This document shows positions 1-18,542 of a DNA stretch of 64,000 nucleotides, piece after piece. A model generated the notes under the pieces. That model had not been told where the DNA came from. It saw only the letters and a program-made list of their open reading frames with translations, and did no database searches. The DNA is from an uncultured Methanosarcinales archaeon (lineage in GTDB: Archaea > Nanobdellota > Nanobdellia > Woesearchaeales > GW2011-AR15). Each line of letters opens with the position of its first letter. Position 1 is the first letter of the stretch. The position numbers were made by a program, and so were the translations under genes. The stretch is taken from positions 2,747 to 66,746 of the forward strand of contig CAZEKF010000006.1 of NCBI GenBank assembly GCA_964512765.1. The letters run 5' to 3'.

Positions 1-1547
1 TCAAAAATTCAACTGCAAACATTGCCGGTAGGATGGTTTTAGACGGTATTCATTTACTTAAAACTTCATTTATAAATCTAAGTGATTATAAATTAGACAC
101 AGCTGCTCATGAAATTTTGGGTGAAAAAAAATTAATATCAGGTGTAGATAAAGGAAAAGAGATTGAAAGGCAATTTAAAGAAGATCCTCAAAAGTTAGTT
201 GATTACAATCTAAAAGATTCTGAGCTTGTAATAAAAATATTAGAGAAGAAAAATATCATAGATCTAACCGTCCAAAGGTCGTTGCTAACAGGCATGCAAC
301 TAGATAGAGTTAGAGGGTCAATAGCTTCATTAGACAATCTGTATCTAAGAGAAACTAAAAAACTAGGTTATGTGTGTAAAACATCTGAGTATGGTCAAAG
401 AGAAGCAAGGATAAAAGGCGGTTATGTTAAAGATTCAACACCTGGTATTTATGATTTTATTAATGTTCTGGATTTCAAGAGTCTGTATCCAAGTATAATG
501 CGAACATATAACATTGATCCGTTATCATTTATTCCAAAAGAGCTTCACAAAAAACATAAAGAATATATTGAAGCACCTAACGGTGCCAGGTTCAAGAAAA
601 AGTATGGGATATTACCGAATTTATTGCAAAGGTTATGGGAGCAAAGGGATGAAGCTAAAAAAGTTGACAATCAAGAACAAAGTTATGCTATTAAAATAAC
701 CATGAATTCAATGTTCGGTGTTCTAGCAAATCCAATGTGCAGATTTTATTCACTGGAAATGGCAAACGCAATCACGCACTGGGCACAGTTTACTATTAAA
801 AAAACTGCTGCGATTGTTGAAAAACAAAAAGGTTACAAAATCATATACGGTGACACAGATTCAATATTCCAAGAAACTAAAGCAAAAAGTATTGAAAAAG
901 CACGTGAAATCGGAACAGAAACTCAAGCGTTTGTTAATAAATACTGGGCAGATTATGTGAAAAAACTTGACCTTGATAATTTCTTAGAACTTGAATTTGA
1001 AAAAACTTATATTAGATTCATGATGCCGAAAATTAGAGGTACTGATATAGGCGCTAAGAAAAGGTATGCGGGGTTGTTAATTAAAGATGGTAAAGAAAAG
1101 ATTGATTTTACTGGTTTGGAATTTGTTAGAAGGGACTGGACAGACCTTTCAAAAAAATTCCAACTTGAATTATTGGATAAAATATTCCACAAACAAGAAG
1201 TTGTTGATTACATTAAAAAATTTGTTGAAACATTACAAAAAGGCAAGTATGACAATTTGTTAGTATATAAGAAAGCTATTAGAAAACCACTAGATAAATA
1301 TGTTAAGACAACACCTCCGCATGTTAAAGCTGCTCGAAAATTAGACAAACTGACTTCAAACATTATAGCATACGTCATGACAACTGAAGGGCCTGAACCT
1401 GTACAAAAGATTAAACATAAACTTGACTATAACCATTACATTGAAAAACAAATTAAGCCAATAGCTGATTCTATACTGGTTTTTTACAATCAGAAGTTTG
1501 ATAATTTACTGACAGATTCCAAGCAAACTAGTTTATTCAGATTTTAA
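1..1547 (+). CDS. polB: Family B DNA polymerase, C-terminal part (5' end outside window)
   Basis: The frame is open from base 3, upstream of the listed ATG. Motifs present: DFKSLYPSI (A), KITMNSMFG (B), YGDTDS (C), KKRYAG. Confidence 0.9.
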   Translation, partial: KNSTANIAGRMVLDGIHLLKTSFINLSDYKLDTAAHEILGEKKLISGVDKGKEIERQFKEDPQKLVDYNLKDSELVIKILEKKNIIDLTVQRSLLTGMQLDRVRGSIASLDNLYLRETKKLGYVCKTSEYGQREARIKGGYVKDSTPGIYDFINVLDFKSLYPSIMRTYNIDPLSFIPKELHKKHKEYIEAPNGARFKKKYGILPNLLQRLWEQRDEAKKVDNQEQSYAIKITMNSMFGVLANPMCRFYSLEMANAITHWAQFTIKKTAAIVEKQKGYKIIYGDTDSIFQETKAKSIEKAREIGTETQAFVNKYWADYVKKLDLDNFLELEFEKTYIRFMMPKIRGTDIGAKKRYAGLLIKDGKEKIDFTGLEFVRRDWTDLSKKFQLELLDKIFHKQEVVDYIKKFVETLQKGKYDNLLVYKKAIRKPLDKYVKTTPPHVKAARKLDKLTSNIIAYVMTTEGPEPVQKIKHKLDYNHYIEKQIKPIADSILVFYNQKFDNLLTDSKQTSLFRF

Positions 1548-1567
1548 CAAATTAGAATCTGAATATT

Positions 1568-1596
1568 CGAAAATGTATTACATTTTCGTTTTGTTT
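1568..1596 (+). terminator. Hairpin plus T-rich tail after polB
   Basis: CGAAAATGTA-T-TACATTTTCG is a perfect inverted repeat (1568-1588), followed by TTTTGTTT. Confidence 0.4.
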
Positions 1597-1607
1597 GGGT
1601 TTGGAAG

Positions 1608-2138
1608 TTAAATTAATAACAATAATAACGGTGTTCCTAAGATAGAGAATAGAATAATGTTAAATAGAATATTTGTTATTGCAAACGGCAAATATTTTGG
1701 TAGATATGTTGGACTTGTAATAACTGTGAATATTGTGCTTATTGCGTTAATAGTAATAGTTGCGTAAGTTCCTAAGGTTCTAATTCCTAGTGTAGGAAAA
1801 AAGCCTGATAACATTACAACTAAACTGTATATAGGTATGACCCAGAATATGTAATTTGCAATAAAACCTCCTGCTAGCATATGGTAAGATATTAAAACAA
1901 AAGTTACAATTAATCCTGTTACTGGCCCATATTTTATTGCTGATAACACGCCTATGAATGTCACAAGTTCTAGCCCTAACTGTCTTAACCCGTAATTGTT
2001 AACAACATAGCTCATCGCTAAGCTTAATATGACTAAAATAAACATGACAAAAACTCCTTTGAATATTGCTAACAGTAAAACAAAGATTGCTATGATTCTT
2101 AAAATACTAATCAATTGTTTTTTGTTTTTTACCTTCAT
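1608..2138 (-). CDS. Polytopic membrane protein, unknown function (paralog of 2576..3139)
   Basis: Several hydrophobic helices. Core LRQLGLELVTF...GPVTGL resembles LPQLGFELYST...GPWYGM in the other ORF. Confidence 0.6.
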   Translation of the reverse strand: MKVKNKKQLISILRIIAIFVLLLAIFKGVFVMFILVILSLAMSYVVNNYGLRQLGLELVTFIGVLSAIKYGPVTGLIVTFVLISYHMLAGGFIANYIFWVIPIYSLVVMLSGFFPTLGIRTLGTYATITINAISTIFTVITSPTYLPKYLPFAITNILFNIILFSILGTPLLLLLI

Positions 2139-2165
2139 GTTTTCAAAAAGATAAAGAAATAGAAG

Positions 2166-2570
2166 TTATAAAGTTAACCTTTGAACAACTTTTTCAATTA
2201 AATGATCTTTTAGTTTGAAATCAATTTCATTAGGATGTATCCACATTAATTCTGTATGTTCTTCGCTCATGTTAATTTGAATATCTTTAACAGTGCACAA
2301 GTATGTAATTCTAACAATATGTTTTTCATCATCTTTATAGATTGTGGATGCGTCTAATATTTGTTTTACCTGATCAAGTTCAAGTCCTGTTTCCTCAAGA
2401 AGTTCTCTTCTTAATCCATCTATTGGTTCTTCACCATAATTAATCCTGCCGCCAGGTATGTCCCATATTCCGTGAATGTTGTCTTCTTTGTATTTATCCG
2501 ACCTTTTAATAAAAAGTATTTTACCGTCATTGTTTATTACTGCTTTGACACCCACATAAAATTTGCTCAA
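2166..2570 (-). CDS. NUDIX hydrolase
   Basis: Nudix box GGRINYGEEPIDGLRRELLEETGL. Confidence 0.85.
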   Translation of the reverse strand: MSKFYVGVKAVINNDGKILFIKRSDKYKEDNIHGIWDIPGGRINYGEEPIDGLRRELLEETGLELDQVKQILDASTIYKDDEKHIVRITYLCTVKDIQINMSEEHTELMWIHPNEIDFKLKDHLIEKVVQRLTL

Positions 2571-2575
2571 TTACA

Positions 2576-3139
2576 TCACCTTAATATTGCGTATAAAATC
2601 GGGACAAGAGTCCGAAATATAAACATAGTTAATAAAATATGTGTAAACGTATGAAACATTGCTGAGCTTATTCTTGCACCCGATATCACAAAGATTGGAA
2701 CTGTAATAATTTCATAAATAATTACAAATAACACACCAAGTACGGTAATGTTAATATTTAGATGGCGAATAAGTCCGCATGTAAGACCTATTAATCCCCA
2801 TGCAGTCATAGATATATAAGTATAATACTTAATTTTTCCACTGAAAAAATATGCAAAAAAGTTTGATAATAGCCCTTGTAACATACCATACCACGGTCCT
2901 AATAATAATCCTGTTAATATTGTGGATGTTGAATATAATTCAAAGCCTAGTTGAGGCAACCAAAAAAAATGGTTGTAGATTCTTGAGATTGATGCTAGAA
3001 ACAAGAGTATAAAAAAGGTAAAAAAAGTTTTGTGCTTTTGAAAAAAAACTAATGCAAGATAAAATAAGATCAAATAAAGTATGTATCTCCATATGTGGAT
3101 GTTTTTTAAGATACTAAAATCTAGTTTTTTGTAGTTCAC
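2576..3139 (-). CDS. Polytopic membrane protein, unknown function (paralog of 1608..2138)
   Basis: Multi-helix hydrophobic profile and a shared core motif with 1608..2138. Confidence 0.6.
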   Translation of the reverse strand: MNYKKLDFSILKNIHIWRYILYLILFYLALVFFQKHKTFFTFFILLFLASISRIYNHFFWLPQLGFELYSTSTILTGLLLGPWYGMLQGLLSNFFAYFFSGKIKYYTYISMTAWGLIGLTCGLIRHLNINITVLGVLFVIIYEIITVPIFVISGARISSAMFHTFTHILLTMFIFRTLVPILYAILR

Positions 3140-3234
3140 GATGTGTGTTACAATGATATTAAATAAAAAAATATAGGACTCAATGAGGGGACAAAAAGTA
3201 CACTTTTATATATTAAAATAGTATTCTGTAATGT

Positions 3235-3990
3235 ATGCATAACATAAATTTACTAAAAAAACTAGGTTTCACTGAGTATGAAGCTCGCACTTATGTTGCT
3301 TTATCTGAACTAGGACCAAGTACTGCTAAAGAAATTTCAGAGTATAGTAAACTACCTAAGAATAAAACTTATGAAATGTTAAATAAATTAGAGAATAAAG
3401 AAAAAATAGTTTCATTACCAGTAACTCCCAGAAAATATAAGATATTAGACATTAACCAATTAAAAGAAAATGTCACTGATCAAAAAAAACAAATTAACCT
3501 AATTGAAAAAAAATTAAACAAGTTTATTGAAGAAAGTTCTAAACCTAAACTAAAGGAATTCAAAGAAATATTTTGGATTATTCGAGGGAAAAAAGCTATT
3601 ATTGAAAAGATGACCAACCAGAATAAAAAAGCAAAAAAAGAAATTCTTTCAATAAACAGGTTAAGCACAGCTAACCCTGTCAATTTAAGAAACATGAAGA
3701 TAGCAATTAATAACGGTGCAAAAGTAAAATTCTTAGCTCCTGATCTAAAAAACAATAAACAAGCTTTGAAATGGCAATCAATTGGATGTGAATTAAGAGA
3801 TTATGATGAAATTAAATATGGTCCAATAGGAACAAGAATTGGTGTATTTGATAAAAAAATTGTAAGAATTACTTTTGGTGAACCTGATGTAAACAGAGAA
3901 GAAGATTACATTACACTATGGGCAGAATCACCTCATTTGGCTAATATATTAAGAAATTATTTCATGAATATTTGGAATAAATCTAAATAA
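3235..3990 (+). CDS. TrmB-family transcriptional regulator
   Basis: The N-terminal winged HTH LGFTEYEARTYVALSELGPSTAKEISEYSKLPKNKTYEMLNKLENK is typical of TrmB. Length of about 250 aa fits. Confidence 0.8.
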   Translation: MHNINLLKKLGFTEYEARTYVALSELGPSTAKEISEYSKLPKNKTYEMLNKLENKEKIVSLPVTPRKYKILDINQLKENVTDQKKQINLIEKKLNKFIEESSKPKLKEFKEIFWIIRGKKAIIEKMTNQNKKAKKEILSINRLSTANPVNLRNMKIAINNGAKVKFLAPDLKNNKQALKWQSIGCELRDYDEIKYGPIGTRIGVFDKKIVRITFGEPDVNREEDYITLWAESPHLANILRNYFMNIWNKSK

Positions 3991-3994
3991 TTTA

Positions 3995-5365
3995 TCAATT
4001 CATACTTGATTCATATGATCCAGTGACTGTTCTCTTCTGTATCTCTAAATCTCCTCCTGTTTCTCCAGTATATTTTTCAAGATGTTGTAGATAATGACCC
4101 ATTGCACTATTAAAATCACCAATAGTAAAGATTCCACCTGGTGTACCGCCCCATGCTTGTTCATCATACAACACTTTTCTAAACCCTACCAAATATCTTT
4201 TTGGATAAATTGATAACCCTCTTGAATTTTGTCTAAGAGCTAGATAAGACGTAGTACTTGGAGTTCCCATGTTCCCAAACAATTGTTCTATACATGATAG
4301 TTGGTCCTGTGAATTAAAACTTGCAATTCTACAAAAGATTCTTGACAACTCACGATGAATATTTTTATCAGCTGTATTTCTTTCTAATAACAAATCTCTC
4401 ATCTCATAAGCAAAAAATTTATCATATCCTCCCTTACGTATTTCTTGTTCTAGAAAATCTATACCAACTTTTTTTTTTGCTAAATCTACTATTCCATCAT
4501 TAAATTCGTGCAACCTCTCAATATACGATTGAAACACTCCAAACAAACCAGGATCTTGAACTAGGTATTTAAGTGATAACTCTTTCATAGAAGCTTCTGG
4601 CCCTTGTGGGATTTGTTCGTATAACCATAACGCTGTTTTTCTTAAATTTGCATGTGATATAGGTAATACTGTCATTAGTTTGTTTTCAGGGTGAAACCCA
4701 GAGGTCATCAACCGAGCAATATCTCTGTTCCTAACATATTTTTTAAGCCCTTCTTTCCAGAAATTAACTCTTGAAATCGGATATATACTCATGTGAGATA
4801 CTGTATAATCTCCTTCACCAATAAGAGTTCTAACTGATTCTTCTAAAACCTGTTCACGGCGTGACAATTTATGATCTATTTTCCTTCCTAACATGTCTGA
4901 TTGTTTCCCAGCAACAGGATGGCAAACAATTACTTGTCTTTGACCTTTATTCTGAATATCAAGTAATCTATACATGTTAGTGACTAGATTTCGTCTTTTT
5001 GTTTTCGGGTTGACAACTTTAGAAACATCAATTAGGTTTCCTGAGTTTGCGAAGGTGTAGTGTAAGTCACCAATCTCAACCTGGGTCCCAGGTGGCGCAC
5101 TAACAAATTCCATTGATTCAAACTGATGTTTAATTGAATAAATAAACTGTTCAAAATAATATAACATTAACCAGGTTGCTGCATGACTTTCATCATGCGG
5201 TCTGTTTAATAAATAGAAATCCAATAATGGATCGACGTTTTCTATATGTGGATGTGCATTAATAGTTATTATTCTACCAGGATCAACTTCAGGATACTCT
5301 GCAACTTCAAAAGGAATTTCCTGTGAAAAACTTCCATTTAACAGCAAATGATCTAAGTTTGACAT
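3995..5365 (-). CDS. Hypothetical protein, 456 aa, no family recognised
   Basis: Long uninterrupted ORF. A TATA-like TTTATAAATA lies about 22-31 nt upstream of the ATG on the minus strand. Composition is less Lys/Asn/Ile-rich than neighbouring housekeeping genes. Confidence 0.6.
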   Translation of the reverse strand: MSNLDHLLLNGSFSQEIPFEVAEYPEVDPGRIITINAHPHIENVDPLLDFYLLNRPHDESHAATWLMLYYFEQFIYSIKHQFESMEFVSAPPGTQVEIGDLHYTFANSGNLIDVSKVVNPKTKRRNLVTNMYRLLDIQNKGQRQVIVCHPVAGKQSDMLGRKIDHKLSRREQVLEESVRTLIGEGDYTVSHMSIYPISRVNFWKEGLKKYVRNRDIARLMTSGFHPENKLMTVLPISHANLRKTALWLYEQIPQGPEASMKELSLKYLVQDPGLFGVFQSYIERLHEFNDGIVDLAKKKVGIDFLEQEIRKGGYDKFFAYEMRDLLLERNTADKNIHRELSRIFCRIASFNSQDQLSCIEQLFGNMGTPSTTSYLALRQNSRGLSIYPKRYLVGFRKVLYDEQAWGGTPGGIFTIGDFNSAMGHYLQHLEKYTGETGGDLEIQKRTVTGSYESSMN

Positions 5366-5396
5366 TTAGTAGGTGTAAAAATAAGTTATTTATAAA

Positions 5397-5480
5397 GATT
5401 ATATTACTTTATGGGCAGAAAGTCCTCATTTAACTAATATACTAAGAAACTATTTTATGAACATTTGGAGGAAAAGTTAA
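5397..5480 (+). pseudogene. Orphan fragment of a trmB-like 3' end (27 codons plus stop)
   Basis: Translates to DYITLWAESPHLTNILRNYFMNIWRKS*, against DYITLWAESPHLANILRNYFMNIWNKSK* at 3904..3990. There is an in-frame stop at 5382-5384 and no similarity upstream. Confidence 0.8.
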
Positions 5481-5481
5481 G

Positions 5482-7776
5482 TTAAACAACTTTCATCAAA
5501 CCAATGTTTTCAAAATGAACAGCTGTGTCTCTATAAAAATCCTTTGCATCTTGCATCATAGCATTTTTGACAGGATCTAATAGAAATCTGTCGACAATCT
5601 CCCCTACGTATCCAACATCAACAACTTGGTATTCTCTTAATCTTGCCTTGATTTCCTGAGGTGACAAGGGTATACCTCTACGCTTTGCAAGTCGAACATC
5701 TTTACCAAAATTGTGTGCTGCCTTGGGATGGTTAGTTACAAAGTCCTTCATAAATGCTTTTTTTACATCCTTTGCTAAGTCCCTAATAACCCTACCTGTT
5801 GCTCCATCAAGTTGTTCAGCCCAAGCAAAATAAGATTTCCCAATATTTGTTACTGGAACATGTCTAATTAGATATCTTCTTATTAAATGTGCTCTTTCTT
5901 CTATTGCGAGTTCACCAACAACACCGACATAACCCGTTCTACTATAAATTTGAACAGGTATTTCCATAGGTTTATTTGACATGCCCATTATTGATACTCC
6001 ACGATTATCTACTAATCCTTCAAGTTGTTCTTGAAGTTGATTTTGTACCATTGCATAGGGTTTATTATTATGAAACCCGTTCCCAGAGTTAAACCAACCA
6101 TTGAATTCATCCATTATAAGCACAACTTGTTTACCTGTATCATCATGCAATTGATTACAAAAATCCATAACTCTAGAGTAATTTTTTTCAAAATTCTGAA
6201 ACCAAAAAGATCCAATGTCAGGTACACTTAATTTAACTTTAGCAAATCTTGGAGTAGAAATTATTGCTTTTCCTAACATAGTTTTACCGCAACCAACTGG
6301 ACCGATCAAAATCAGGTTTGCCCCTTGTCCAAGTTCTGGATCCACTGCTGTAAATAAATCAACATATTTATCGTGCCACATCATACCTTCAATAAAAGCT
6401 TTAGCAGGATCAAAGCTTGCTCCATAAACATCACTAATTTTAACATTGAGTGCAGGTGTTCTTACAAATTCTGCTTGATGAAAATCACCTTCACTTTTAA
6501 CAACATAAAAATGGTTACCTGTTTTTTCTTCTTTTTTTACTTCATCTTTCTTATGGCCTGCTTGGATGTCTTCAAACTTTTCTTTTTGAATTACTGCTTT
6601 TTGTACTGTTGAACGTGCAATTTTAAGTTTTAATTCTGGACTAGGTTCATCTTTAATAGCTTCAAGTTGGTTCCATATGTATTGCATTAGTTTTAGTCTT
6701 TTTGTAATATATCTCTTTTCAGTTGTTGTTCTTCCATTTGTTTCATAAGTGCCTGGTTTTACACCTAAAAAATCAATTCCTTGTAACCTGGAAAGAGCCT
6801 CATGAGGAACTACAAGAGGATTATCAAAATCTCTTCCTGTTACTTCAAACACTCCTGTCGGGTCAAGATTTTGAGTCTGGATTATTTCTCTCATTAGTGT
6901 TTCAAGACCTGAGAAAACACCATAAAAATGTGAAAGTACTTCTCCAATTTCAGATAAATACTCTCTTGGGTTAGTTAAATATGACATATATGTAGGATTA
7001 GCTATCTCAACAAGTGTTCTTGCTGATCTTTCTAAATCAAAGTCATCAAGATGTTTAACTTCTGTTGGTTTGCCCCGTTTCTCAGCAGTTATTCTTGTAT
7101 ATCTTCGTGGAAGTTGATTAAGTACATCCAAAGTCAAATCAGTAATAAACACATTATCTTGAACCAGTGGTGTTCGTGCAAATTCAACTTTATTCGGATC
7201 AAAGAAAAATGAATCGTCTTTATCAAACTGTTTTATAAAGGCCGTTGATTTGTACCTCACATTTAAAAAACGATTTTGTAAATATCTATATTGAGCTATT
7301 GACCTTGGATATAATACTTCAAGCAATAAATTATATCTATTTAGTGCTCCAAGTAGTGTATCTCGGACAACTGTTGATGTTTGATAAAATAAATGAGAAA
7401 AATTACTAACATTTATAACTTGTTCAGGTTGTTTATTACTCAACATTGCATGTGCTTGGACAGCTCTCACAGCAAGTTTTTTGCTCTGTAAAATACCAAT
7501 TAATGGTTCTTGAAGACTTGCATCTATGAGTTTCCCAACCTCAAAAAAATAGTTGTACGAGGCAATATCAGAACAATCACCTAATTCAGCAAATGCTTTT
7601 CCCTCTGGTTGATAGATTTCAAAAGTTTTATCTTTAAGCTTGATAACCTTTGCTTCTAATTCAGATACAACTTCCATTAGTTTAGCAAAATTCTCAGCTT
7701 GTGCGTCAAAAAATGCTTGTTGTTCTGGAGATGGATCATTTGCCTTCATCAATTCTGATAACAAGTCATCTCTCAT
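5482..7776 (-). CDS. Classical AAA-family ATPase with a large (~470 aa) uncharacterised N-terminal region
   Basis: Walker A LILIGPVGCGKT, Walker B VVLIMDEFNGW, SRH-like VSIMGMSNKPMEIPVQIYSRTGY, and a lid-like EERAHLIRRYL...LDGATGRVIRDLAKD. Confidence 0.8.
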   Translation of the reverse strand: MRDDLLSELMKANDPSPEQQAFFDAQAENFAKLMEVVSELEAKVIKLKDKTFEIYQPEGKAFAELGDCSDIASYNYFFEVGKLIDASLQEPLIGILQSKKLAVRAVQAHAMLSNKQPEQVINVSNFSHLFYQTSTVVRDTLLGALNRYNLLLEVLYPRSIAQYRYLQNRFLNVRYKSTAFIKQFDKDDSFFFDPNKVEFARTPLVQDNVFITDLTLDVLNQLPRRYTRITAEKRGKPTEVKHLDDFDLERSARTLVEIANPTYMSYLTNPREYLSEIGEVLSHFYGVFSGLETLMREIIQTQNLDPTGVFEVTGRDFDNPLVVPHEALSRLQGIDFLGVKPGTYETNGRTTTEKRYITKRLKLMQYIWNQLEAIKDEPSPELKLKIARSTVQKAVIQKEKFEDIQAGHKKDEVKKEEKTGNHFYVVKSEGDFHQAEFVRTPALNVKISDVYGASFDPAKAFIEGMMWHDKYVDLFTAVDPELGQGANLILIGPVGCGKTMLGKAIISTPRFAKVKLSVPDIGSFWFQNFEKNYSRVMDFCNQLHDDTGKQVVLIMDEFNGWFNSGNGFHNNKPYAMVQNQLQEQLEGLVDNRGVSIMGMSNKPMEIPVQIYSRTGYVGVVGELAIEERAHLIRRYLIRHVPVTNIGKSYFAWAEQLDGATGRVIRDLAKDVKKAFMKDFVTNHPKAAHNFGKDVRLAKRRGIPLSPQEIKARLREYQVVDVGYVGEIVDRFLLDPVKNAMMQDAKDFYRDTAVHFENIGLMKVV

Positions 7777-7927
7777 TTCGACGAAAAATTAGATCTAATA
7801 TTAAAAGATATTGGGAAAATTGTATTCTTTAAACAGAAAAACCATAAAGACTTCTTAAAAATATATTAAAGTTCAAAATAAAAGAAATTTATAATATTAG
7901 TCCTGGACCTGATGCTGGGAAATTAAT

Positions 7928-9337
7928 TTAATACCTATAATGCTCGCTCTTATACGGTCCTTTTACATTAATACCAATATAGTCTGCTTGTTCATCTGAT
8001 AGTTTAGTTAATTTCACTCCAAGCTTATCCAAATGCAATCGAGCAACTTCTTCATCAAGTTCTTTTGGTAGCATGTACACTCCTAATTTGTAATCTTTTT
8101 GCCATAATTCTATCTGTGCCAATACTTGATTAGTGAAACTATTGCTCATGACAAAACTTGGATGGCCTTTTGCATTGCCTAAGTTCACGAGACGTCCTTT
8201 AGATAATAAAATTATTGAATGTCCGTCTGGAAACACAAACTTGTCTACTTGTGGTTTAATATTGATTTCTTTAATTCCTGGATAATTTTCTAGTTTATCA
8301 ACTTGGATCTCATTATCAAAATGTCCAATATTACAAACAATTGCCTGATCTTTCATTTTTTTCATGTGATCTAATGTTATAATATCACAGTTACCTGTTG
8401 CTGTTACAAAAACATCAGCTTCAGAAACAACATCTTCAACTGTATTTACTTCAAATCCTTCCATTGTTGCTTGTAACGCACAAATAGGGTCTATTTCTGT
8501 TACAATAACACGTGCGCCAAACCCTCTCATACTTTGTGCACAGCCTTTTCCTACATCGCCGTATCCACAAACAACAACAATCTTACCAGCGATCATGACA
8601 TCTGTTGCACGTTTAATACCATCTGCCAAACTTTCTCTACAACCATACAAATTATCAAACTTACTTTTTGTAACAGAATCATTCACATTAATAGCTGGAA
8701 ACAATAGCTTGTTTTGTTCAAGCATCTGGTATAGTCTATGAACACCTGTTGTAGTTTCTTCACTAACACCTTTAACTTTTTTAGAAACTTTTGTCCATCT
8801 TTCAGGATCTTTTTGATAAATTTGTTTCAATGTTGACATTAATTCTTGAAAATCCTCACCCTCATTACTATAATCTTTATCCAATATTGAAGGATCTTTT
8901 TCAATTTCAACACCTTTATGTATCATTAATGTTGCGTCACCACCGTCGTCTACTATTAACTCTGGTCCTTCTCCGTTAAAATCAAGTGCTTTAGCTGTAT
9001 ACTCCCAGTATTCTTTTAATGTTTCTCCTTTGTATGCAAAAACAGGTATTCCTTTTTCAGCAATTGCTGCTGCTGCAGGATCGTGTGTACTGTAAATGTT
9101 ACAAGACGCCCATCTTACACTTGCTCCAAGTTCAATTAATGTTTCAATTAAAACAGCAGTCTGGACAGTCATGTGTAAACTGCCTGTTATTTTAGCACCT
9201 TTCAATGGTTTGCTAGAACTGTATTTTTTTCTAACTGTCATTAATCCAGGCATTTCAACTTCTGCAATATCAATTTCTTTCCTACCTTGCTCAGCTAATT
9301 TAATATCTTTAACTACATAATTATCAGTTTTGTCCAT
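7928..9337 (-). CDS. ahcY: Adenosylhomocysteinase
   Basis: [19 protein letters not shown]-binding site [12 protein letters not shown], and full-length similarity to the SAHH pattern. Confidence 0.95.
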
Positions 9338-9475
9338 TTTAACATCACAAAATAACTATATTTTTTAGTAATTTAAATAGATTTTATTAAAAACAAAGTA
9401 AAAAATTTAATAAATTAATGAAAAACATGTAAAATTTGCAATAACTTAATAAATATACAAAAAATATCCATAACA

Positions 9476-9895
9476 ATGCTTGATAAAACAGATAAAACAA
9501 TCTTAAAAGAGTTAAAAAACAATTCCAGAATTTCTCTAAAAGACATGTCTAAGAAAACCAATATTAGACCGTCAACAATTCATTCAAGAATACAAAAGTT
9601 AGTAAAAGACAATGTAATTGAGAATTTCACCATAACAACTAATGATTCAAAGTTAAATGAAGAGTTTATTGTTTTTGTATTAGTAAACGCTGACAAAGAA
9701 ATCAAAAATACTTTTTTTAATAAAAGAGAAATAAAAGATGTGTTTGGAGTAACTGGCAGCTATGATTTAATTATGAAATGCAAATTCTCTGATATTAATG
9801 AATTCAATAAATTTATTCTAGAACTAAGAAAACTTCCAGAAGTACAAAACACTTTGACAATGGTAAGTACTATTAAGATTAAGGAAAAAGTCTAA
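9476..9895 (+). CDS. Lrp/AsnC-family transcriptional regulator
   Basis: N-terminal HTH LDKTDKTILKELKNNSRISLKDMSKKTNIRPSTIHSRIQKL plus a C-terminal RAM-like domain. Confidence 0.85.
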   Translation: MLDKTDKTILKELKNNSRISLKDMSKKTNIRPSTIHSRIQKLVKDNVIENFTITTNDSKLNEEFIVFVLVNADKEIKNTFFNKREIKDVFGVTGSYDLIMKCKFSDINEFNKFILELRKLPEVQNTLTMVSTIKIKEKV

Positions 9896-9960
9896 ATAAT
9901 TTTACTAATCTTGGATTCAAATAATATAGATTTATAATTATATTTTTCTTTTATTAGGAA

Positions 9961-10470
9961 ATGATCAATTATGAAACATTCCCAAGAGTCCCATGGATAA
10001 TGCAAAATTATGCAAAAGCATTAAATATAGATATTGATGATTTACTACAAGTTACCAATGCAGAATATGATAGCCCACTGTTAATGACATCAAAGACTCA
10101 ATATGACCTTGCACAAACACAGGAACCCGTACAGTGTGTTTGGTGTGCAGATATTCCAACTAGAGAAGAACGTCCGCAAATACAAAAAAGTTTGCTAACA
10201 CCTATGTATGGCGGTGAAATATATTTTGAAACTCCTGAGGATGAAAGAAATAAAACAATTATTTTTGTTGATGACTGTCTCAGGATTGGAGAAAGAGTTC
10301 CAACTCAATGGGCTACTCTCTCTGTATTACAGTATATGTTCAAAGAACATCTTGTTTTGGGTGGTGTTCCTGATAAAGCATTTGATTGGTTTGATAAGAT
10401 GCCAATAGATTTGCTTATATGTGACCATAATCTTTGGTATGAATCTGAAGTTGCTCAAACATATTTTTAA
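9961..10470 (+). CDS. Hypothetical protein, 169 aa
   Basis: ORF with an AGGA 5 nt upstream of the ATG. No family recognised; Trp-rich, with atypical composition. Confidence 0.5.
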   Translation: MINYETFPRVPWIMQNYAKALNIDIDDLLQVTNAEYDSPLLMTSKTQYDLAQTQEPVQCVWCADIPTREERPQIQKSLLTPMYGGEIYFETPEDERNKTIIFVDDCLRIGERVPTQWATLSVLQYMFKEHLVLGGVPDKAFDWFDKMPIDLLICDHNLWYESEVAQTYF

Positions 10471-10482
10471 AACGGAATTCAG

Positions 10483-10671
10483 TTGATTCAATTTTTAAGA
10501 GAAAAAGAACAGATAATTCCAAAAATTATTGCTCATAGTGACAATGTTGAAGTTATTTCTAAGTGGGAAAATGTTCCTGGGTACCAATGCTTTGTAGCTA
10601 AAGTTGGCAAAGGAAAAGATTATAGGGCTAATTTAGTTGATGCTGTGGAAAGAGCATTGGTTGATTTGTAA
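10483..10671 (+). CDS. Hypothetical ORF in the same frame as 9961..10470 (possible continuation past a single TAA)
   Basis: No ATG anywhere in the ORF (the listed start is TTG) and no SD. It is separated from the upstream ORF only by TAA plus 4 sense codons, in the same frame. Confidence 0.3.
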   Translation: MIQFLREKEQIIPKIIAHSDNVEVISKWENVPGYQCFVAKVGKGKDYRANLVDAVERALVDL

Positions 10672-10721
10672 CACGTAATATTCAAAAAAAGTCTGGATTT
10701 AACTTTGATTAACTGATTTCA

Positions 10722-11363
10722 TCAAAGAGAATTAATTAGTTCAATAGAAATTTCGTTTAATGAATCAACAACAACATCTGCTTCTTCTAACGCATATTTG
10801 TCATGTGTGGTTGCAACTCCAATAACTTTCATACCTGCTTTTTTAGCAGCTTGTATTCCATGACCAACATCCTCTATCACAACACATTCATTTGGAGATA
10901 TATTTAATTTTTCTGTACATCTCAAAAATATATCTGGAGCAGGTTTTCCTTTGTCAACTTCATGATTACTTACATAACCTTGAAAATATTTTGTTAAACC
11001 TAATTTATCAAGATTAAACTCAATATTTTTAGGATGGCCTGACGAACCAACAATTAATTTATAATTATTATCAAAAAATCTTTTTATTAAATCTGTTGCA
11101 CCGTTTATTTCATACAACTCATTCTGAGCAAGTTCCCTGTACATGGCTTCTTTTTCATTATCTAATCTTGGATAATCACTTGGATCTTGTTCAGGTAATA
11201 ACATCTTAAAGATTTCTTTATTAGCCATACCAAAATGTTTATTGAAATCTTGTTTTGAATGTGGTTTATTGTGTTTGGCTAAAAATTGTTGCCAAGCAAT
11301 AAAATGCAATTCTGCAGAGTCTACAATCACTCCATCCATATCAAATATAATTGCTTTTATCAT
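10722..11363 (-). CDS. HAD-superfamily hydrolase (beta-phosphoglucomutase-like subfamily)
   Basis: Motif I IIFDMDGVIVDS. Also GSSG..., KGKPAPDIF and VIEDVGHGIQAAKKAGM. Confidence 0.8.
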   Translation of the reverse strand: MIKAIIFDMDGVIVDSAELHFIAWQQFLAKHNKPHSKQDFNKHFGMANKEIFKMLLPEQDPSDYPRLDNEKEAMYRELAQNELYEINGATDLIKRFFDNNYKLIVGSSGHPKNIEFNLDKLGLTKYFQGYVSNHEVDKGKPAPDIFLRCTEKLNISPNECVVIEDVGHGIQAAKKAGMKVIGVATTHDKYALEEADVVVDSLNEISIELINSL

Positions 11364-12007
11364 TTTAACTTGTTTAACAAAATTTCATTCAGTTCACCCA
11401 TTGACTCAATCTTAAAATCAGCCATGCTATGGTCTTGATATTTAGTAAAATCATCTTCAACAGCTATGCAAGTCATGTTGGCAGCTTTTGCAGCTTGTAT
11501 ACCCAAAATTGCGTCTTCAACAACAACACATTGTTTTGGTTCAAGGTTTAACGCTTCAGCGGCTTTCAGAAATATTTCTGGGTTTGGCTTAGCTTCATTT
11601 ACTTCGTCACCACCTATTATAAAATCAAAGTACTGTTTAATATGAAATGTATTAACAGTATCCAAAGCAGATTCTCTAGGAGCGCCTGTTGCCAGAGCAA
11701 TTTTGTAACTTGGTTTTAATGTTTTTAATTGATCAAGAACACCTTTTTTTAAGTGAACATCTGTTCTGAACCTTTCATTATTTTGAAATTGACGTCTGTA
11801 AAACTCTTCAGGCTGCATTTTAAGGTTATATTTATCAAAAAAATATTTAGTAAAATCTAATCCATTCTTACCAAACTGAGCTGCAAACTCTTGTTTAGAA
11901 ACTGTCAAACCAAAAAGTTTTTCAAACAACCCATTCCAGACTTGAAACAAAACAGGACTAGAATCTATTACAACACCGTCCATATCGAAAATAATGCCTC
12001 GTATCAA
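11360..12007 (-). CDS. HAD-superfamily hydrolase (tandem paralog)
   Basis: IIFDMDGVVIDS, KPNPEIF, VVEDAILGIQAAKAANM. TTG start, and a 4-nt overlap with the downstream paralog. Confidence 0.8.
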   Translation of the reverse strand: MIRGIIFDMDGVVIDSSPVLFQVWNGLFEKLFGLTVSKQEFAAQFGKNGLDFTKYFFDKYNLKMQPEEFYRRQFQNNERFRTDVHLKKGVLDQLKTLKPSYKIALATGAPRESALDTVNTFHIKQYFDFIIGGDEVNEAKPNPEIFLKAAEALNLEPKQCVVVEDAILGIQAAKAANMTCIAVEDDFTKYQDHSMADFKIESMGELNEILLNKLK

Positions 12008-12129
12008 ATATACTCACCTTTATTTTCGAACTTCCACTTCGTGTAAGTATCAAATATAATACCTTTAATCATAGCAACCTCAGAATTAATTACATTTTAA
12101 ATAAGTATTTATTAATTATATGATTCAAG

Positions 12130-12987
12130 TTACAATCCTAATTTTAATTCTTTTAATTCAGGAGAAGTTAAATAATCTTTTATTCTTTGGAAATTTTTAT
12201 ATGCTCCAAGCCTTTCTATACCCCTTGTAAGTCTTTTTTTGAACACGTTATCACTTATATTTAATGCTAGAGCTGCAGCTGTATATGTTGCTTTAGGCTC
12301 ACCAGAAGTAATCCCGTAAAATGTGTCTAAAGGATCCCTAAATTCACTACCAAAACCAATTGCATTAAAGGCTTGCTGGATTCCCAATGGAACTGTTTGA
12401 TTATCTTCAAAATTCAGTCTGTTTGCTAGTATTTTGAGATTTTTTTCAACTGCCTTATATACTGGCTCAAATGAAATTCTTTCAAGTTTTGCATAATCTC
12501 CCCTGCCATTGTACATATCTTCTAACTCATCTAAAAAAAGAGTTGTTGTAATGACTGAAGGATTTATTTCCTGTTTAAAAACATCTAAAATTAGTTTTTT
12601 CAAACCACGAGATTTTCTATCAAATGATTTATTAAACTCTGTTCTTATAACCAAATCAGTTACTGTGGTATCTAGATCAGTACCAAGATATTTAAATACT
12701 CTATCAATAAAAAAATTGTCTGCATTTAATCTTGGTTTTTCAGGTAGAATAGGTCTTCCATTAAGTAATAGATAAAAATGAATTAGGTTTCCTTCATGTG
12801 TTGATGTATGTGCCGCATATAACTCTATTAAAGGATTGGACTTTGCCAGATCTGCTGCTGCTTCGAAAAGTGCTGCTTCTTTATCTTCTGGTATTTCGTC
12901 CTCAACTCTAACATCAAGATTATCTAAAGGTGCGCCAAGTAAAAAGGCTAGCGTTTGATCAATAATTTCTTCTTGATACTTTGGCAT
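12130..12987 (-). CDS. Hypothetical protein with a C-terminal HTH resembling sigma-70 region 4 / LuxR type
   Basis: ATYTAAALALNISDNVFKKRLTRGIERL fits the pattern [S]Y.EIA..L.IS..TVK.RL.RA...L. The remainder is unrecognised. Confidence 0.55.
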   Translation of the reverse strand: MPKYQEEIIDQTLAFLLGAPLDNLDVRVEDEIPEDKEAALFEAAADLAKSNPLIELYAAHTSTHEGNLIHFYLLLNGRPILPEKPRLNADNFFIDRVFKYLGTDLDTTVTDLVIRTEFNKSFDRKSRGLKKLILDVFKQEINPSVITTTLFLDELEDMYNGRGDYAKLERISFEPVYKAVEKNLKILANRLNFEDNQTVPLGIQQAFNAIGFGSEFRDPLDTFYGITSGEPKATYTAAALALNISDNVFKKRLTRGIERLGAYKNFQRIKDYLTSPELKELKLGL

Positions 12988-13025
12988 GTCAACAAAAGTA
13001 AAAAGAAGTTATATTTAAAAACTAC

Positions 13026-13304
13026 TCACTCTAGTCCATAAGAATCTACAAAACCTCTTATTAGTGAATAATCTTTAAGATAATCAAGACCTTTGTTAGT
13101 TATTTTATAAGTTTTTTTAGACTTATCATTTTCTGTCTCAATCACCATTTTTTTAGAGATTAGTTCATTAGTATATTCTGTTAACATTTGGTGTGAGAGG
13201 TTAGCTTTATACATTATATGAGTTGGTTTAACAGTCTCACCTTTATCCCTGATAACCTGCAGAATATCTTTAATAATCTCAAGTCTGTCTCTCTTTTTAG
13301 GCAT
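13026..13304 (-). CDS. Small winged-helix DNA-binding protein
   Basis: 92 aa. RLEIIKDILQVI...KPTHIMYKANLSHQMLTEYTNELISKKMV...YKITNKGLDYL is typical of archaeal wHTH proteins. Confidence 0.7.
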   Translation of the reverse strand: MPKKRDRLEIIKDILQVIRDKGETVKPTHIMYKANLSHQMLTEYTNELISKKMVIETENDKSKKTYKITNKGLDYLKDYSLIRGFVDSYGLE

Positions 13305-13962
13305 TTTTCTTAATAATATAATAATTCATTAATATAAGAAAGTATCCTATAAAATTCACCAAGTGTGCTAGTACATAAAACATTACAGACAATTTGATTA
13401 ATAGAAATATAATATGGCCTAAAAATAAAAATAAAAATGCTAGTGCAATACAAAACGCACATTTCTTTTTTCTTTTAAGGTAATTCAAGTAATAACTATA
13501 AGATAAAAATCCTAAATATAACGCAGTTAGTGTTAAAAACCCTATCAATGTTTTCTTTGAAAGAAAAATTACTAGAAATGATGATGACACTAGGTACAAT
13601 AATAGGCTTTGATTCTTTGTCTTAAAAGCGTTGTACATTAAGAACGCTAACCCGATAGTTAGAAACAATGCATGGACGTACAATCCTTGTTCATTAACCA
13701 CGCTTAGTGGATGTATGCCAAACATCACGTATAAATCATGTTGTACTCCTAACAAAACTAATAAATTAAAAAACGCTTGTAACCCATAAGACGCAGAAAT
13801 AAAGAAAAACGCTATTGTCATAAACTTTGTCTGTGCCTGGTTAAATGTTCGGTATAATTTATATGAAATATATGAGATAAAAAGTGTAATCAAAGCAAAA
13901 AATATTTGTAACAGTATTGCATAACCTAAAAAAGAAGATTCTATCAAATAAAGATCAGGCAT
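13297..13962 (-). CDS. Polytopic membrane protein, unknown function
   Basis: About 7 hydrophobic helices. The stop overlaps the start of the wHTH gene by 8 nt. Confidence 0.6.
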   Translation of the reverse strand: MPDLYLIESSFLGYAILLQIFFALITLFISYISYKLYRTFNQAQTKFMTIAFFFISASYGLQAFFNLLVLLGVQHDLYVMFGIHPLSVVNEQGLYVHALFLTIGLAFLMYNAFKTKNQSLLLYLVSSSFLVIFLSKKTLIGFLTLTALYLGFLSYSYYLNYLKRKKKCAFCIALAFLFLFLGHIIFLLIKLSVMFYVLAHLVNFIGYFLILMNYYIIKKNA

Positions 13963-14029
13963 AGACTATATCCTTAATTTTCCCTTTTTAAAGTTTATGA
14001 AAGATAAATCTGATTTTACCTTGAAATTG

Positions 14030-14038
14030 TTTATAAAT
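14030..14038 (+). promoter_or_regulatory. TATA-box-like element for a small transcription unit
   Basis: TTTATAAAT lies about 46 nt upstream of the ATG at 14080. This would give a ~20-nt 5' UTR containing GAGG. Confidence 0.3.
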
Positions 14039-14079
14039 GATATTATACATACATTATGTTATCAAGAGGCGATGGTTAA

Positions 14080-14175
14080 ATGGACAAAAAAAACAAAATA
14101 CGGTTTTGGTCGGATCTTTATGATTTTCCAACCATCCAGTCACTGATAAATGAATCATGTTTCGCATTTGTATAA
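14080..14175 (+). CDS. Candidate small protein (31 aa) or sRNA body
   Basis: Encodes MDKKNKIRFWSDLYDFPTIQSLINESCFAFV. GAGG sits 10 nt upstream, and the ORF lies between the TATA-like box and a strong hairpin/T8. Confidence 0.3.
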   Translation: MDKKNKIRFWSDLYDFPTIQSLINESCFAFV

Positions 14176-14227
14176 CACCTCATTTACAAATAAAGTATTC
14201 ATATAACACCAACCAAGAAAGACAGTT

Positions 14228-14260
14228 AACCTCCATCTTCCATTGGTGGAGGTTTTTTTT
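14228..14260 (+). terminator. Hairpin plus T8 terminator
   Basis: AACCTCCA (14228-14235) pairs with TGGAGGTT (14247-14254) and the T run continues to 14260. This is the GC-richest stem in an AT-rich spacer. Confidence 0.55.
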
Positions 14261-14284
14261 CTTTTTCCATTTTTTTTGAAAGAA

Positions 14285-14887
14285 TTATAGAACATCTAGA
14301 ATTTGATGTGGTTCTGTTATGAGATAATCAGGATTTTCTTTTTGTAATGCAGCTTTTGAGTTAAAACCCCAAGCAACTGATATAATTTTTATTCCACACA
14401 TTCTAGCAGCTTTGATGTCACGAGTTTCGTCCCCTACATACACAACATCTTCTGGTTCCAGATTGTGTGATTTAAGAAATTTTTCTAAGAGTTTATTTTT
14501 ACCAAAAAGTTTACTCCCTGTTTGAATCGAATCAAACAAATCAATTTTGGTTTTAAGAATTTTATCAACATTTTTTCTTAAATTTGAAGTAAGAATTGCA
14601 AGATTGTATTTCTTTTTAAGTTCAATCAAAACACCTTCAATATCTTTAAACAATTCAACATTTTTATCTCCTAATTTAGTAAGAACTTTTTTTACAAAAA
14701 AAGGGAGTTTTGTTGAAGGTATGTTAAAATCCTTAACAATTTGTTTAGAAGATTTAAGTTTAAATTCTTCAGGTTCTTTTATTTTTTCATAACCATATTT
14801 TGAACTAAGTTCATTATAAATCTCAAGCACAGCACTAAAACTATCTGCTATTGTCCCATCAAAGTCAAAAATAACGTATTTTATCAT
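14285..14887 (-). CDS. HAD-superfamily hydrolase (phosphoglycolate-phosphatase-like)
   Basis: YVIFDFDGTIADS, LAILTSN, YVGDETRDIKAARMCG. Confidence 0.8.
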   Translation of the reverse strand: MIKYVIFDFDGTIADSFSAVLEIYNELSSKYGYEKIKEPEEFKLKSSKQIVKDFNIPSTKLPFFVKKVLTKLGDKNVELFKDIEGVLIELKKKYNLAILTSNLRKNVDKILKTKIDLFDSIQTGSKLFGKNKLLEKFLKSHNLEPEDVVYVGDETRDIKAARMCGIKIISVAWGFNSKAALQKENPDYLITEPHQILDVL

Positions 14888-14889
14888 TT

Positions 14890-16089
14890 TTATTTATTAT
14901 GCAATATTTCAACAACATCCCTATGTTTTAGCTCTTGATCTTTTTTCAAAGCAAGATTAGTTTTCATGTCAACTGCTCTGACAAAATTCTCGCCAATTGT
15001 TGTATGGACTTTGAATGCAAATTCTAATGCTGTAGTATGTTTTGGCACTAAGAAACAATCTGGTAAAACATTGTTATCTGCGTCTGTTAATTTGTTGCTC
15101 GCAACAGGATAAACACCTATATAATTTAGCAAATTAAAAACTGCTTTATTAAGAACATCCTGTACACCTGTTGAACCATATTTGTCTAGCATGTTAGTTT
15201 TAATGAAATTCAATGCTTGTTTTTGCTTATCATTTAACTTATCTTCATGTAATATCTTAAAATCTTTTTCACCTGGCGTGTACTCGATTAAACCATGCTT
15301 ATCAGCTTCTTTTAATGCTAACTCTGATTCTGCTGAACAAGGAATAATAATATAATCTGGAAACTGTTCTTTTACTTTTTTATAATTTTCTTCAGCACCA
15401 GGTATGTCAATTTTATTAGCTGCTATAATAATCGGCTTAGTTTGTTTTCTTAGTTCTGTTGTTAACTGTTTTAACTCGTCTTCTGTCCATTTAATAATTA
15501 TTTTATCAGACAAATCTAGTTTTTTCAAGATTGATTTAACCATTTCTTCATTAACTTTTAACCCAGAGAATTGTTTAGAAATTGCTTTAACAACATTTTC
15601 TTTGTTTTGGTTAACTGCATTTGAAAACTTTTTCCATGCTTTATCAACAATCTGAAAGTACCACATGTCAAGTTCGTGTTCTAAGAATTTGATATCGTTT
15701 GCAGGGTCATAGCTACCTTTTTCAACAGGTTCACCTTTTTCATTCAAACTTCCTGAGATGTCAACAACATGTATAAGTGCATCTGCCTGGCTAAGGTCTG
15801 ATAAGAACTCATTGCCCATACCTAATCCTTTATGCGCACCTGGCACTAAACCTGCAACATCAATTATTTTAACAGGTATAAACCGTTTATGATGTTTACA
15901 ATAACCTTCTTTAGGTTTGCAATTAACTTTAAACTCTTTGTCAACACAATCAATTTTTACAAAACCAATACCTGAATTAGGTTTTATTGTAGTAAACGGA
16001 TAATTAGCAATTGCAACGTCCATTAAAGTTGTTGCTTTGAAAAAAGTACTTTTACCTGCTGAAGGTTTACCAACACATGCTACGAACAT
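14890..16089 (-). CDS. YchF/OLA1-family P-loop NTPase with C-terminal TGS domain
   Basis: G1 motif [31 protein letters not shown], and a C-terminal TGS-like domain. Confidence 0.85.
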
Positions 16090-16128
16090 ATTAATTAGGA
16101 ATAAGATAAGAAATTATAAAGGTTATTG

Positions 16129-17208: not shown

Positions 17209-17356
17209 AACAATTTAAATTACAGATTTCATTTAAATATCTCACACAAGAATGTCAAGTGTGTCTAGTGGGAGTTTATAGACGTGGAAAGAGTGTCCAG
17301 TGAAAAAAGTCACTTTTCTAAACAAATAAATATCAGTAACAAATTAGTAATATAAA

Positions 17357-17914
17357 GTGACTTTAATCAAAGAATTCAAAAATCTAGCTAACCAGATAAC
17401 ATTAATACGACTTATATTAATTCCATTCTTACTTTATTTTTCTTATACAAAGAATTTGCTAATATTTATCATATTGTATACAATTGCAGGTTTAAGTGAT
17501 TTTTTTGACGGCATAATTGCAAGAAAATATAATTTATGCACAAACTTCGGCGCAAAGCTTGATTCAATAGCAGATGAAATAATAAGTTCATTAACAATTG
17601 TGTTTGTGTTTCTCTTGGTACCTAACGTAGTTCTCAAGTATATTTATTATGTTATATTAGCTGCGGTTCTTTTATTTGTAAGATTTTTAATCTACCTAAT
17701 AAAATTCAAAAACAAAACAAGACTTCATCTAATTTCTTCAAAGTTTGTCATGTTTTTCTTGTATCTCTGTATATTTATTGTTTTAATATTTAATTATGAG
17801 CAAATAATTCCAATTTGCATTATTGTTTGTTCAATTGCTTTGATTGAAGAAATCTTAGTGTTATTAACTAGAAAAAAAATACATCCAAATATTAGATCTA
17901 TATTCATAGAATGA
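17357..17914 (+). CDS. CDP-alcohol phosphatidyltransferase (archaetidyl head-group synthase type)
   Basis: Motif DFFDGIIARKYNLCTNFGAKLDSIADE (D-G-x2-A-R-x8-G-x3-D-x3-D). GTG start; polytopic. Confidence 0.85.
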   Translation: MTLIKEFKNLANQITLIRLILIPFLLYFSYTKNLLIFIILYTIAGLSDFFDGIIARKYNLCTNFGAKLDSIADEIISSLTIVFVFLLVPNVVLKYIYYVILAAVLLFVRFLIYLIKFKNKTRLHLISSKFVMFFLYLCIFIVLIFNYEQIIPICIIVCSIALIEEILVLLTRKKIHPNIRSIFIE

Positions 17915-18459: not shown

Positions 18460-18542
18460 TACAATACTACTCTTTGAAAAATTCTAATAATCTTCTATCT
18501 TTTAATATAACTTTAGCTATCCTCATCAAAAACAGCTTTAAA

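Follow-up and report, generated by a model that had tools for sequence, protein, structure and literature searches.

The analysed window is a 64,000-nucleotide (nt) stretch of contig CAZEKF010000006.1 (positions 2,747 to 66,746, forward strand) from the genome of an uncultured archaeon placed by the GTDB lineage in the Woesearchaeales; the source genome is 1.53 Mb in size, with a G+C content (GC) of 31.9%, 97% completeness, and 44 contigs. Two intact open reading frames (ORFs) on the minus strand are the subject of this work. The gene at 5482..7776 encodes a 764-amino-acid (aa) protein with an AAA ATPase domain (P0001), and 116 nt downstream, on the same strand, the gene at 3995..5365 encodes a 456-aa protein (P0002). 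An earlier sequence-only reading of this DNA had described them as an orphan two-gene module, possibly a horizontally acquired system. The two ORFs are co-oriented and located as that reading gave them, and the strings it quoted (ISDVYGASFDPAKAFIEGMM, GPVGCGKT, LIMDEFN, EERAHLIRRYL, and SHANLRKTA) are all present.

P0001 is divided into three parts. A Pfam search returned PF00004 (AAA) as the sole domain, at residues 488 to 613 (E value of 1.1e-13; 52.2 bits versus a cut-off of 21.2), and the whole AAA domain extends over approximately residues 440 to 690 (5707..6459, minus strand). The best matches among sequences of the Protein Data Bank (PDB) are Vps4/CdvC (4d82, 3.7e-14) and the D2 domain of p97; these matches support the placement of the AAA domain in the classical clade, as the sequence-only reading had proposed, nearest to Vps4/CdvC and p97 D2. 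The domain is preceded by a helical N-terminal region with a coiled-coil-like start (residues 1 to 424; 6505..7776, minus strand), which has no match in Pfam or the PDB and is conserved in the family described below, and is followed by a helical C-terminal extension past the AAA lid (residues 691 to 764; 5485..5706, minus strand), delimited by the ends of the alignments. This extension is common to the family members from DPANN archaea and phages, in which tblastn and blastp alignments reach residues 748 to 759, and is not found in Vps4, whose alignment stops at residues 681 to 683.

The ATPase motifs of P0001 are Walker A (GPVGCGKT, residues 492 to 499), Walker B (LIMDEF, with D556 and E557), the sensor-1 asparagine N601, and the lid; the Walker A, Walker B, and sensor-1 positions are invariant columns in two family alignments (A2 and A4). 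In the arginine finger segment, R613 is invariant, and the arginine that precedes it in the RRF of the family is replaced by serine in P0001 (YSRTG versus I.RRF). The aromatic pore loop reads W-K-G in the phage proteins, Y-M-H in the DPANN copies, and W-F-Q in P0001. Features kept in both the DPANN and the phage clades are Walker A (GP.GCGKT), the aromatic pore-loop residue, the Walker B DE pair, the sensor-1 asparagine, the RRF segment, the lid, and the helical C-terminal extension. Because the ATPase and pore-loop residues are retained, as in established classical AAA proteins, P0001 may be a hexameric, ATP-driven protein unfoldase or remodeller, in which the N-terminal domain would select the substrate.

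The N-terminal domain itself resembles nothing in the collections searched. The sequence-only reading had found the first ~470 residues unrecognisable, and this held up: no Pfam match lies in residues 1 to 470. The domain lacks a Pfam match in all of the seven family members tested, and none was found in NCBIfam or PHROGs either; a profile of the domain (A5), run with hmmsearch against PDB sequences, gave coiled-coil noise only, and a search of the ESM Atlas gave no usable match. The single-sequence AlphaFold2 (AF2) model is unusable (predicted local distance difference test [pLDDT] value of 35).

A word-indexed search with residues 1 to 470 of P0001 recovered only the query itself and, taken alone, would wrongly suggest an orphan. 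Six-frame genome searches with residues 1 to 425 gave a different picture. Of 301 genomes from the order, 10 had a homologue (a strong match in 7, including the source genome), and of 401 high-quality genomes from the phylum, 11 did, again including the source genome (about 2.5%; 10 of the 400 others). None was found in the 5 genomes of the same genus or in the 14 other genomes of the same family. Each of the ten loci (L124 to L133) holds one ORF of 790 to 850 aa, one of which has a probably spurious upstream extension; the encoded proteins align with P0001 over nearly its full length (residues 4 to 759) at 25 to 31% identity, with E values from 1e-45 to 1e-110, and the N-terminal domain of P0001 alone matches the copy in genome G455 at 1.3e-44. 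In a quick maximum-likelihood tree, the DPANN copies (11 rows) and the phage copies (16 rows) form separate clades, each with a support of 99 in the Shimodaira-Hasegawa-like approximate likelihood ratio test (SH-aLRT). P0001 lies inside the DPANN clade as the sister of the G455 copy, which comes from a different order, and its terminal branch is 2.51 compared with a median of 0.8. P0001 is, judged by alignment and tree, a fast-evolving member of an undescribed AAA family of ~800 aa; no description of this family was found in the literature on jumbo phages and Nanobdellota.

The DPANN homologues are single genes among housekeeping neighbours that differ at each locus, including genes for arginyl-tRNA synthetase, CTP synthase, ScpA, prefoldin, FtsY, PAC2, a radical-SAM enzyme, a Nudix protein, and a GH15 hydrolase, and no conserved neighbour gene was found in the DPANN or phage loci compared. 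At one locus (L124), the AAA homologue (4910-7906, minus strand) is directly followed by a gene for a 998-aa S8 subtilase (8181-11249), an arrangement resembling IetA/IetS and seen in this one case. The contig concerned is binned as DPANN, has a GC of 54%, and also encodes an RHS/TcdB-like protein of 1789 aa; it may be mis-binned.

The second branch of the family is viral. When the C-terminal 335 residues of P0001 were used as the query, singleton proteins of 736 to 772 aa were recovered at 82 to 115 bits, compared with at most 57 bits for Cdc48-type proteins, and a scan of IMG/VR with an alignment of those proteins yielded 12 full-length copies on records of 63 to 407 kb. The five IMG/VR records that were looked up measure 374 to 407 kb; three of them have direct terminal repeats, and CheckV completeness is 100% for four. 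A large terminase is present, and no capsid protein of nucleocytoplasmic large DNA viruses was found; the carriers are huge tailed phages. These phage proteins (P0016 to P0024 and the copies at loci L102 to L113, ~750 aa) share the length and the three-part architecture of P0001, from which they differ in forming a separate clade with 19 to 23% identity to it, in their canonical W-K-G pore loop, and in the P-loop inteins that several of them carry; the AAA domain and C-terminal extension account for the match of 82 to 115 bits, and the N-terminal domains are homologous at the profile level. The N-terminal region of P0001 compared directly with a hidden Markov model of the phage N-terminal domain gave an E value of ~10 and an hhalign probability below 1%. 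A profile built from six DPANN homologues, with P0001 left out, aligned with the phage domain at an hhalign probability of 96.9% (E value of 1.8e-10 over 193 columns), compared with 3% for the reversed control; the link between the N-terminal domains of P0001 and the phages holds only by way of this DPANN profile.

Five of 13 copies (1021 to 1182 aa) are interrupted by an in-frame intein located exactly in the P-loop, after GP.GC, with an Intein_splicing domain and either a LAGLIDADG or an HNH homing-endonuclease domain. The genes are those at L022:7980-11045, L110:5666-8920, L111:8001-11069, L112:7938-11048, and L113:7770-11318, four of which are on huge-phage records and one of which is on a contig labelled Lysinibacter. 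A second viral scan recovered copies of the DPANN type, at L134:7842-10229 in a 405,631-bp IMG/VR record (a complete huge tailed virus; terminase at 1.5e-28) and at L135:7515-9926 in a 118-kb record. Both share 43 to 44% identity with the copy in genome G027 and are nested within the DPANN clade, and this nesting is a sign that the AAA gene has been exchanged between huge viruses and DPANN archaea, so that it would move between the genomes of the two.

With respect to known AAA systems, P0001 shares with Vps4/CdvC and p97 D2 a single AAA domain of the same make-up (Walker A and B, aromatic pore loop, sensor-1 asparagine, an RRF-type segment of which P0001 keeps R613, and lid), and these proteins are also its best matches in the PDB and NCBIfam. 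However, it scores 60.9 bits against the CdvC equivalog, which has a cut-off of 650, it has no MIT match at E ≤ 1, and its neighbours are AdoHcyase (S-adenosylhomocysteine hydrolase) and P0002 instead of CdvA/CdvB or ESCRT-III genes. From Cdc48/p97 it differs by its single AAA domain and the absence of a CDC48 N-domain (TIGR01243, 32 bits versus 803), and from both Vps4 and Cdc48 by an unrelated helical N-terminal region of ~420 aa and a C-terminal extension of ~75 to 100 aa. Weak PADLOC matches connect the family with IetA, the AAA ATPase that is paired with an S8 protease in IetAS (0.005 for P0001; 5.7e-11 for the G455 homologue), and the L124 homologue is followed by an S8 subtilase as noted above; against this likeness, the NCBIfam IteA model gives 14 bits versus 510, no protease gene lies by the gene in the window or by 9 of the 10 homologues, and IetA has ~370 aa without a long N-terminal domain.

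The 456-aa protein, P0002, had been described as belonging to no recognisable family, and we agree: Pfam, NCBIfam, PADLOC, and PHROGs yielded nothing that matches it, it contains three cysteines, and it lacks a P-loop. A word-indexed search found the query only. An exhaustive phmmer search of 1.84 billion representatives found three distant relatives, P0006 (424 aa, 2e-19), P0007 (471 aa, 8.6e-11), and P0008 (244 aa, 1.2e-4), and a fourth match that is probably spurious. Two metagenome scans for the 456-aa family gave nothing, genome scans gave P0008 only, viral scans gave no copies, and no further copy of P0002 exists in its own genome or in 40 relatives. Contigs of four data sources carry versions of P0002 that differ from one another at two positions only; the gene is therefore real and belongs to a sampled population. 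The term orphan was therefore wrong for the AAA protein, which has relatives in ten DPANN genomes and in phages, and nearly right for P0002 with its three distant relatives.

The AF2 model of P0002, computed from a four-sequence alignment, has a mean pLDDT of 58, with core elements at 70 to 80. It divides the protein into an α/β N-terminal domain (residues 13 to 254; 4604..5329, minus strand), for which a restriction-endonuclease-like fold nearest to HamA is predicted, and an all-helical C-terminal domain (residues 255 to 435; 4061..4603, minus strand), which had helical-repeat matches only (Z < 6). Foldseek found nothing at E ≤ 0.001 with this model against the PDB and BFVD, and the rows for NDM-1 (template modelling score of 0.12) were dismissed as noise. 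A structural aligner independent of Foldseek placed HamA at the top (8zue_A, Z of 7.7 with a root mean square deviation of 4.3 over 191 residues; 8vx9_A, Z of 7.5), and the entries below, at Z values of 4 to 5.6, are mostly PD-(D/E)xK nucleases (SdaI, tRNA-splicing endonuclease, EndoMS, BstEII, XisH, McrC, EcoT38I, Kpn2I, MspJI, and CdiA-CT). Language-model comparisons gave weak leads to NmeDI_C and NucS_C, at 0.82 only.

The candidate site residues of P0002 are E72, D136, the segment C148-H149-P-V, and K154. In the alignment of P0002 with its three relatives (A1), the position of E72, in helix 1, is acidic in all four sequences, and that of D136, in the first strand of a hairpin, is acidic in three. 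On the second strand lies a motif of the form C-[DEH]-x-[KRV], which after the cysteine reads H-P-V in P0002, D-V-K in P0007, D-F-V in P0006, and E-P-R in P0008; the three sequences without the canonical lysine have a lysine or arginine four residues past the third position of the motif. Because the structural list is dominated by one fold and agrees with both the language-model leads and the motif pattern, the N-terminal domain of P0002 quite probably has a PD-(D/E)xK endonuclease fold. Catalytic competence of P0002 itself is considerably less probable than the fold, as its active site is variant and possibly weakened; the protein may be a lone-acting accessory protein that binds or cuts DNA.

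HamA, the DUF1837 protein of the Hachiman system, exceeds the next structural matches of the P0002 N-terminal domain by ~2 Z units, and P0007 has D-V-K where HamA has E-x-K, presuming that the two positions are equivalent. The differences are that P0002 has no PADLOC or Pfam hit at E ≤ 1, that P0006 to P0008 have no PADLOC hit at E ≤ 1 and no hit to a nuclease family of Pfam at E ≤ 0.01, that an AAA ATPase gene and trmB stand beside the P0002 gene where Hachiman has the superfamily 2 helicase HamB, and that P0002 has the H-P-V motif and an extra helical C-terminal domain of ~200 aa. P0008 consists of the N-terminal domain only, so this domain exists on its own. Its gene (L019:10001-10735) lies between those for an ATP-dependent DNA ligase and a nitroreductase, near a gene for an ORF6N/KilA-N-like protein, on a contig of 26% GC that is labelled Methanosarcinales, a doubtful label at such a GC. 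The sequence-only reading had also seen in SHANLRKTA a faint trace of the tyrosine recombinase box; this candidate was rejected, as P0002 has no Pfam hit to Phage_integrase and, in A1, neither H238 nor R242 of SHANLRK is conserved.

Whether the two genes belong together was judged by co-occurrence of their families. No relative of P0002 was found near the AAA homologue in any of the 10 DPANN loci, in any of 3 viral loci, or in the phage loci. Genome-wide, none was found in five AAA-bearing DPANN genomes (at least 90% complete) or in five complete phage genomes, and in a positive control the same profile recovered P0002 in its own genome at 1e-197. On the other side, the locus of P0008, the only P0002 relative that could be located, has no AAA gene nearby. 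A module or system formed by P0001 and P0002 is not supported, because the two families do not co-occur elsewhere and because a remnant of a third gene lies between the two ORFs.

This third gene encodes a TrmB-family regulator. An intact copy (trmB, 3235..3990, plus strand; PF01978, 1.7e-19), 74% identical to the syntenic gene of genome G003, flanks the P0002 gene on the left, and the remnant comes from another trmB allele, of which it keeps the 3' end (5395..5480, plus strand; 83 nt, with 28 codons and a stop codon of its own). Positions 5395-5474 are 83% identical to positions 3902-3981 at the end of the intact gene, with no more than 11 consecutive identical nt, in agreement with the trmB-fragment scar that the sequence-only reading had placed between the genes. 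In the encoded peptide, 26 of 28 residues are identical to those of the intact copy; the codons differ by 10 synonymous and 2 replacement changes, including TCA to AGT. The remnant matches the intact copy at 64 of 78 nt and the G003 trmB at 62 of 78, compared with 69 of 78 between the latter two, and its homology begins abruptly at 5395, 29 nt upstream of the P0002 start codon. As the differences are mostly synonymous, the remnant diverged as part of a working gene in another lineage; its position between the two ORFs implies that one of them once abutted the trmB 3' end without the other.

Composition does not set the two genes apart. The sequence-only reading took both to be richer in G+C and poorer in Lys, Asn, and Ile than flanking genes, and the values fall within the range of the genome: their GC values of 0.339 and 0.343 (genome mean, 0.318) stand at the 74th to 77th percentile, and the GC of the neighbouring AdoHcyase gene is the same (0.342). 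The Lys + Asn + Ile fraction is at the 10th to 13th percentile, GC at third codon positions is at the 15th to 51st, and the distances in synonymous codon usage and tetranucleotides are at the 24th to 58th percentile of genes of similar length. The composition of both genes is indistinguishable from that of the genome. Either both genes have resided here for long or their donors were relatives of similar composition, and the trmB remnant fits the latter. Absence of co-occurrence elsewhere and an ordinary composition are the two outcomes that the sequence-only reading had itself named as speaking against its proposal.

The right edge of the locus is formed by the AdoHcyase gene (ahcY, 7928..9337, minus strand; PF05221, 1.1e-145), which is kept in 7 relatives at 78 to 82% identity and marks the conserved border of a variable spot. 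Each of the five relatives compared has a content of its own between ahcY and the left-flank genes; in G003, three small unrelated genes take the place of the 3.9 kb found here. Comparison of positions 1-9337 of the window with loci L014 to L018 extends the variation, in every relative compared, from ahcY to a gene for a 504-aa protein (33-1547), and trmB, a Nudix gene, and two membrane-protein genes of the spot are present in some relatives and missing in others. In this reduced genome, the stretch from ahcY to the 504-aa gene is a local gene-turnover hotspot. Neither P0001 nor P0002 was found in the 40 relatives, among them 5 genomes of the same genus and 14 others of the same family, which supports the view that both genes are accessory; this part of the earlier proposal stands, and its extension to a system does not. 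At L010 (G027:C24), the AdoHcyase orthologue is broken by one in-frame TAG, which may reflect recoding, loss of gene function, or an error of sequencing.

Upstream of each ORF, the sequence shows a separate TATA-like box. The box TTTTAATATT (7797..7806, minus strand) is centred ~26 nt upstream of the P0001 start codon, a spacing compatible with a leaderless transcript, and is a putative promoter element. The box TTTATAAATA (5387..5396, minus strand), centred ~26 nt upstream of the P0002 ATG, spans the junction between remnant and insert and would be the promoter of the P0002 gene.

We consider it probable that P0001 and P0002 are two unrelated accessory genes that came to lie side by side through separate recombination events in the variable spot between ahcY and trmB, the former as a member of a DPANN/huge-phage AAA family and the latter as a rare protein with a HamA-like nuclease fold. 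Separate events in this low-GC DPANN genome would have brought each gene into the spot, and an exchange with DNA of a related lineage would have joined them, by homologous recombination on one side and by illegitimate recombination at 5394/5395; the remnant is most simply seen as the scar of such homology-facilitated illegitimate recombination. Several points weigh against this account. The scar does not tell which gene was resident, that is, the direction of the event, and the neighbourhood check from the side of P0002 covers P0008, one of its three relatives. Adjacency on the same strand with a gap of 116 nt and joint absence from relatives would also suit a newly assembled functional pair, and the combination of an ATPase with a PD-(D/E)xK nuclease is common in defence (McrBC, Hachiman, and Lamassu). 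The nuclease fold is derived from a model with a pLDDT of 58, and Z values of 7.5 to 7.7 are within reach of unrelated models.

A recently paired, working ATPase-nuclease system, for example a novel defence system comparable to McrBC or Hachiman, is improbable. Its AAA motor would recognise or remodel a target and thereby regulate the nuclease-fold protein. This reading would draw on the adjacency of the genes and their shared absence from the 40 relatives, on the weak IetA matches of the AAA domain, and on the structural matches of the P0002 N-terminal domain, which is nearest to HamA and also lists McrC and LmuA, all three of them nucleases with NTPase partners. However, the families are not associated in 10 DPANN loci, 5 DPANN genomes, 5 phage genomes, 3 further viral loci, or the P0008 locus, the remnant with its own stop codon separates the genes, each gene has its own TATA-like box, the motif of P0002 has neither the canonical acid nor the canonical lysine, and AAA homologues lie among housekeeping genes rather than in defence islands. 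Those same homologues, with the ordinary composition of both genes, are what could speak for a conserved, unannotated housekeeping complex of this archaeal lineage; such a complex is very improbable and already contradicted by distribution, since the AAA family occurs in ~2.5% of phylum genomes and in none of the 19 genomes of the same family, only 4 of 1.84 billion representatives belong to the 456-aa family, and there is no conserved neighbourhood.

Another unlikely reading takes the 1.49-kb segment 3902-5394 for a selfish or integrative element with one gene, which would have entered the trmB 3' end and supplied a new 3' end in its place, and P0002 for the enzyme of its homing or integration. 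The P0002 gene, and no other, is enclosed by direct repeats of the trmB 3' end, trmB is intact, P0002 has a nuclease-like fold, and its N-domain-only relative is encoded near an ORF6N/KilA-N-like protein, all of which would suit such an element. Yet the repeats share only 83% identity and at most 11 consecutive nt, and they differ mainly at synonymous sites, in the way of alleles from two lineages and not of att sites; there is no integrase gene and no tRNA gene within positions 1-20000, the HxxR of SHANLRK is not conserved, no further copies occur in the genome or the 40 relatives, the viral scans found none, and the motif acid and lysine are replaced. A further reading, in which the AAA family is a remodelling ATPase carried by viruses and passed back and forth between DPANN archaea and huge tailed viruses, and in which the copy captured here has been newly coupled to a HamA-like nuclease-fold protein as a nascent ATPase-nuclease defence pair, is more doubtful still than either the paired system or the selfish element. 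On that reading, the 405-kb virus with its copy nested in the DPANN clade would suggest that DPANN cells, or the hosts of these cells, are infected by huge viruses.

The analysis removes a false lead, in that there is no new two-gene system at this locus, and it delineates two protein families that had not been characterised. As a trace of inter-lineage recombination that creates a gene adjacency in a reduced genome, the trmB remnant is clean and datable. The main interest rests with the AAA family, patchy among DPANN archaea and conserved in huge phages, and with its large N-terminal domain, for which Pfam, NCBIfam, PHROGs, and the PDB offer no counterpart; the inteins in the P-loops of phage copies indicate that the active-site segment is under strong constraint, and the family is a tractable target for structural and biochemical work. 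It may also be useful for tracing the passage of genes between huge viruses and ultrasmall archaea.

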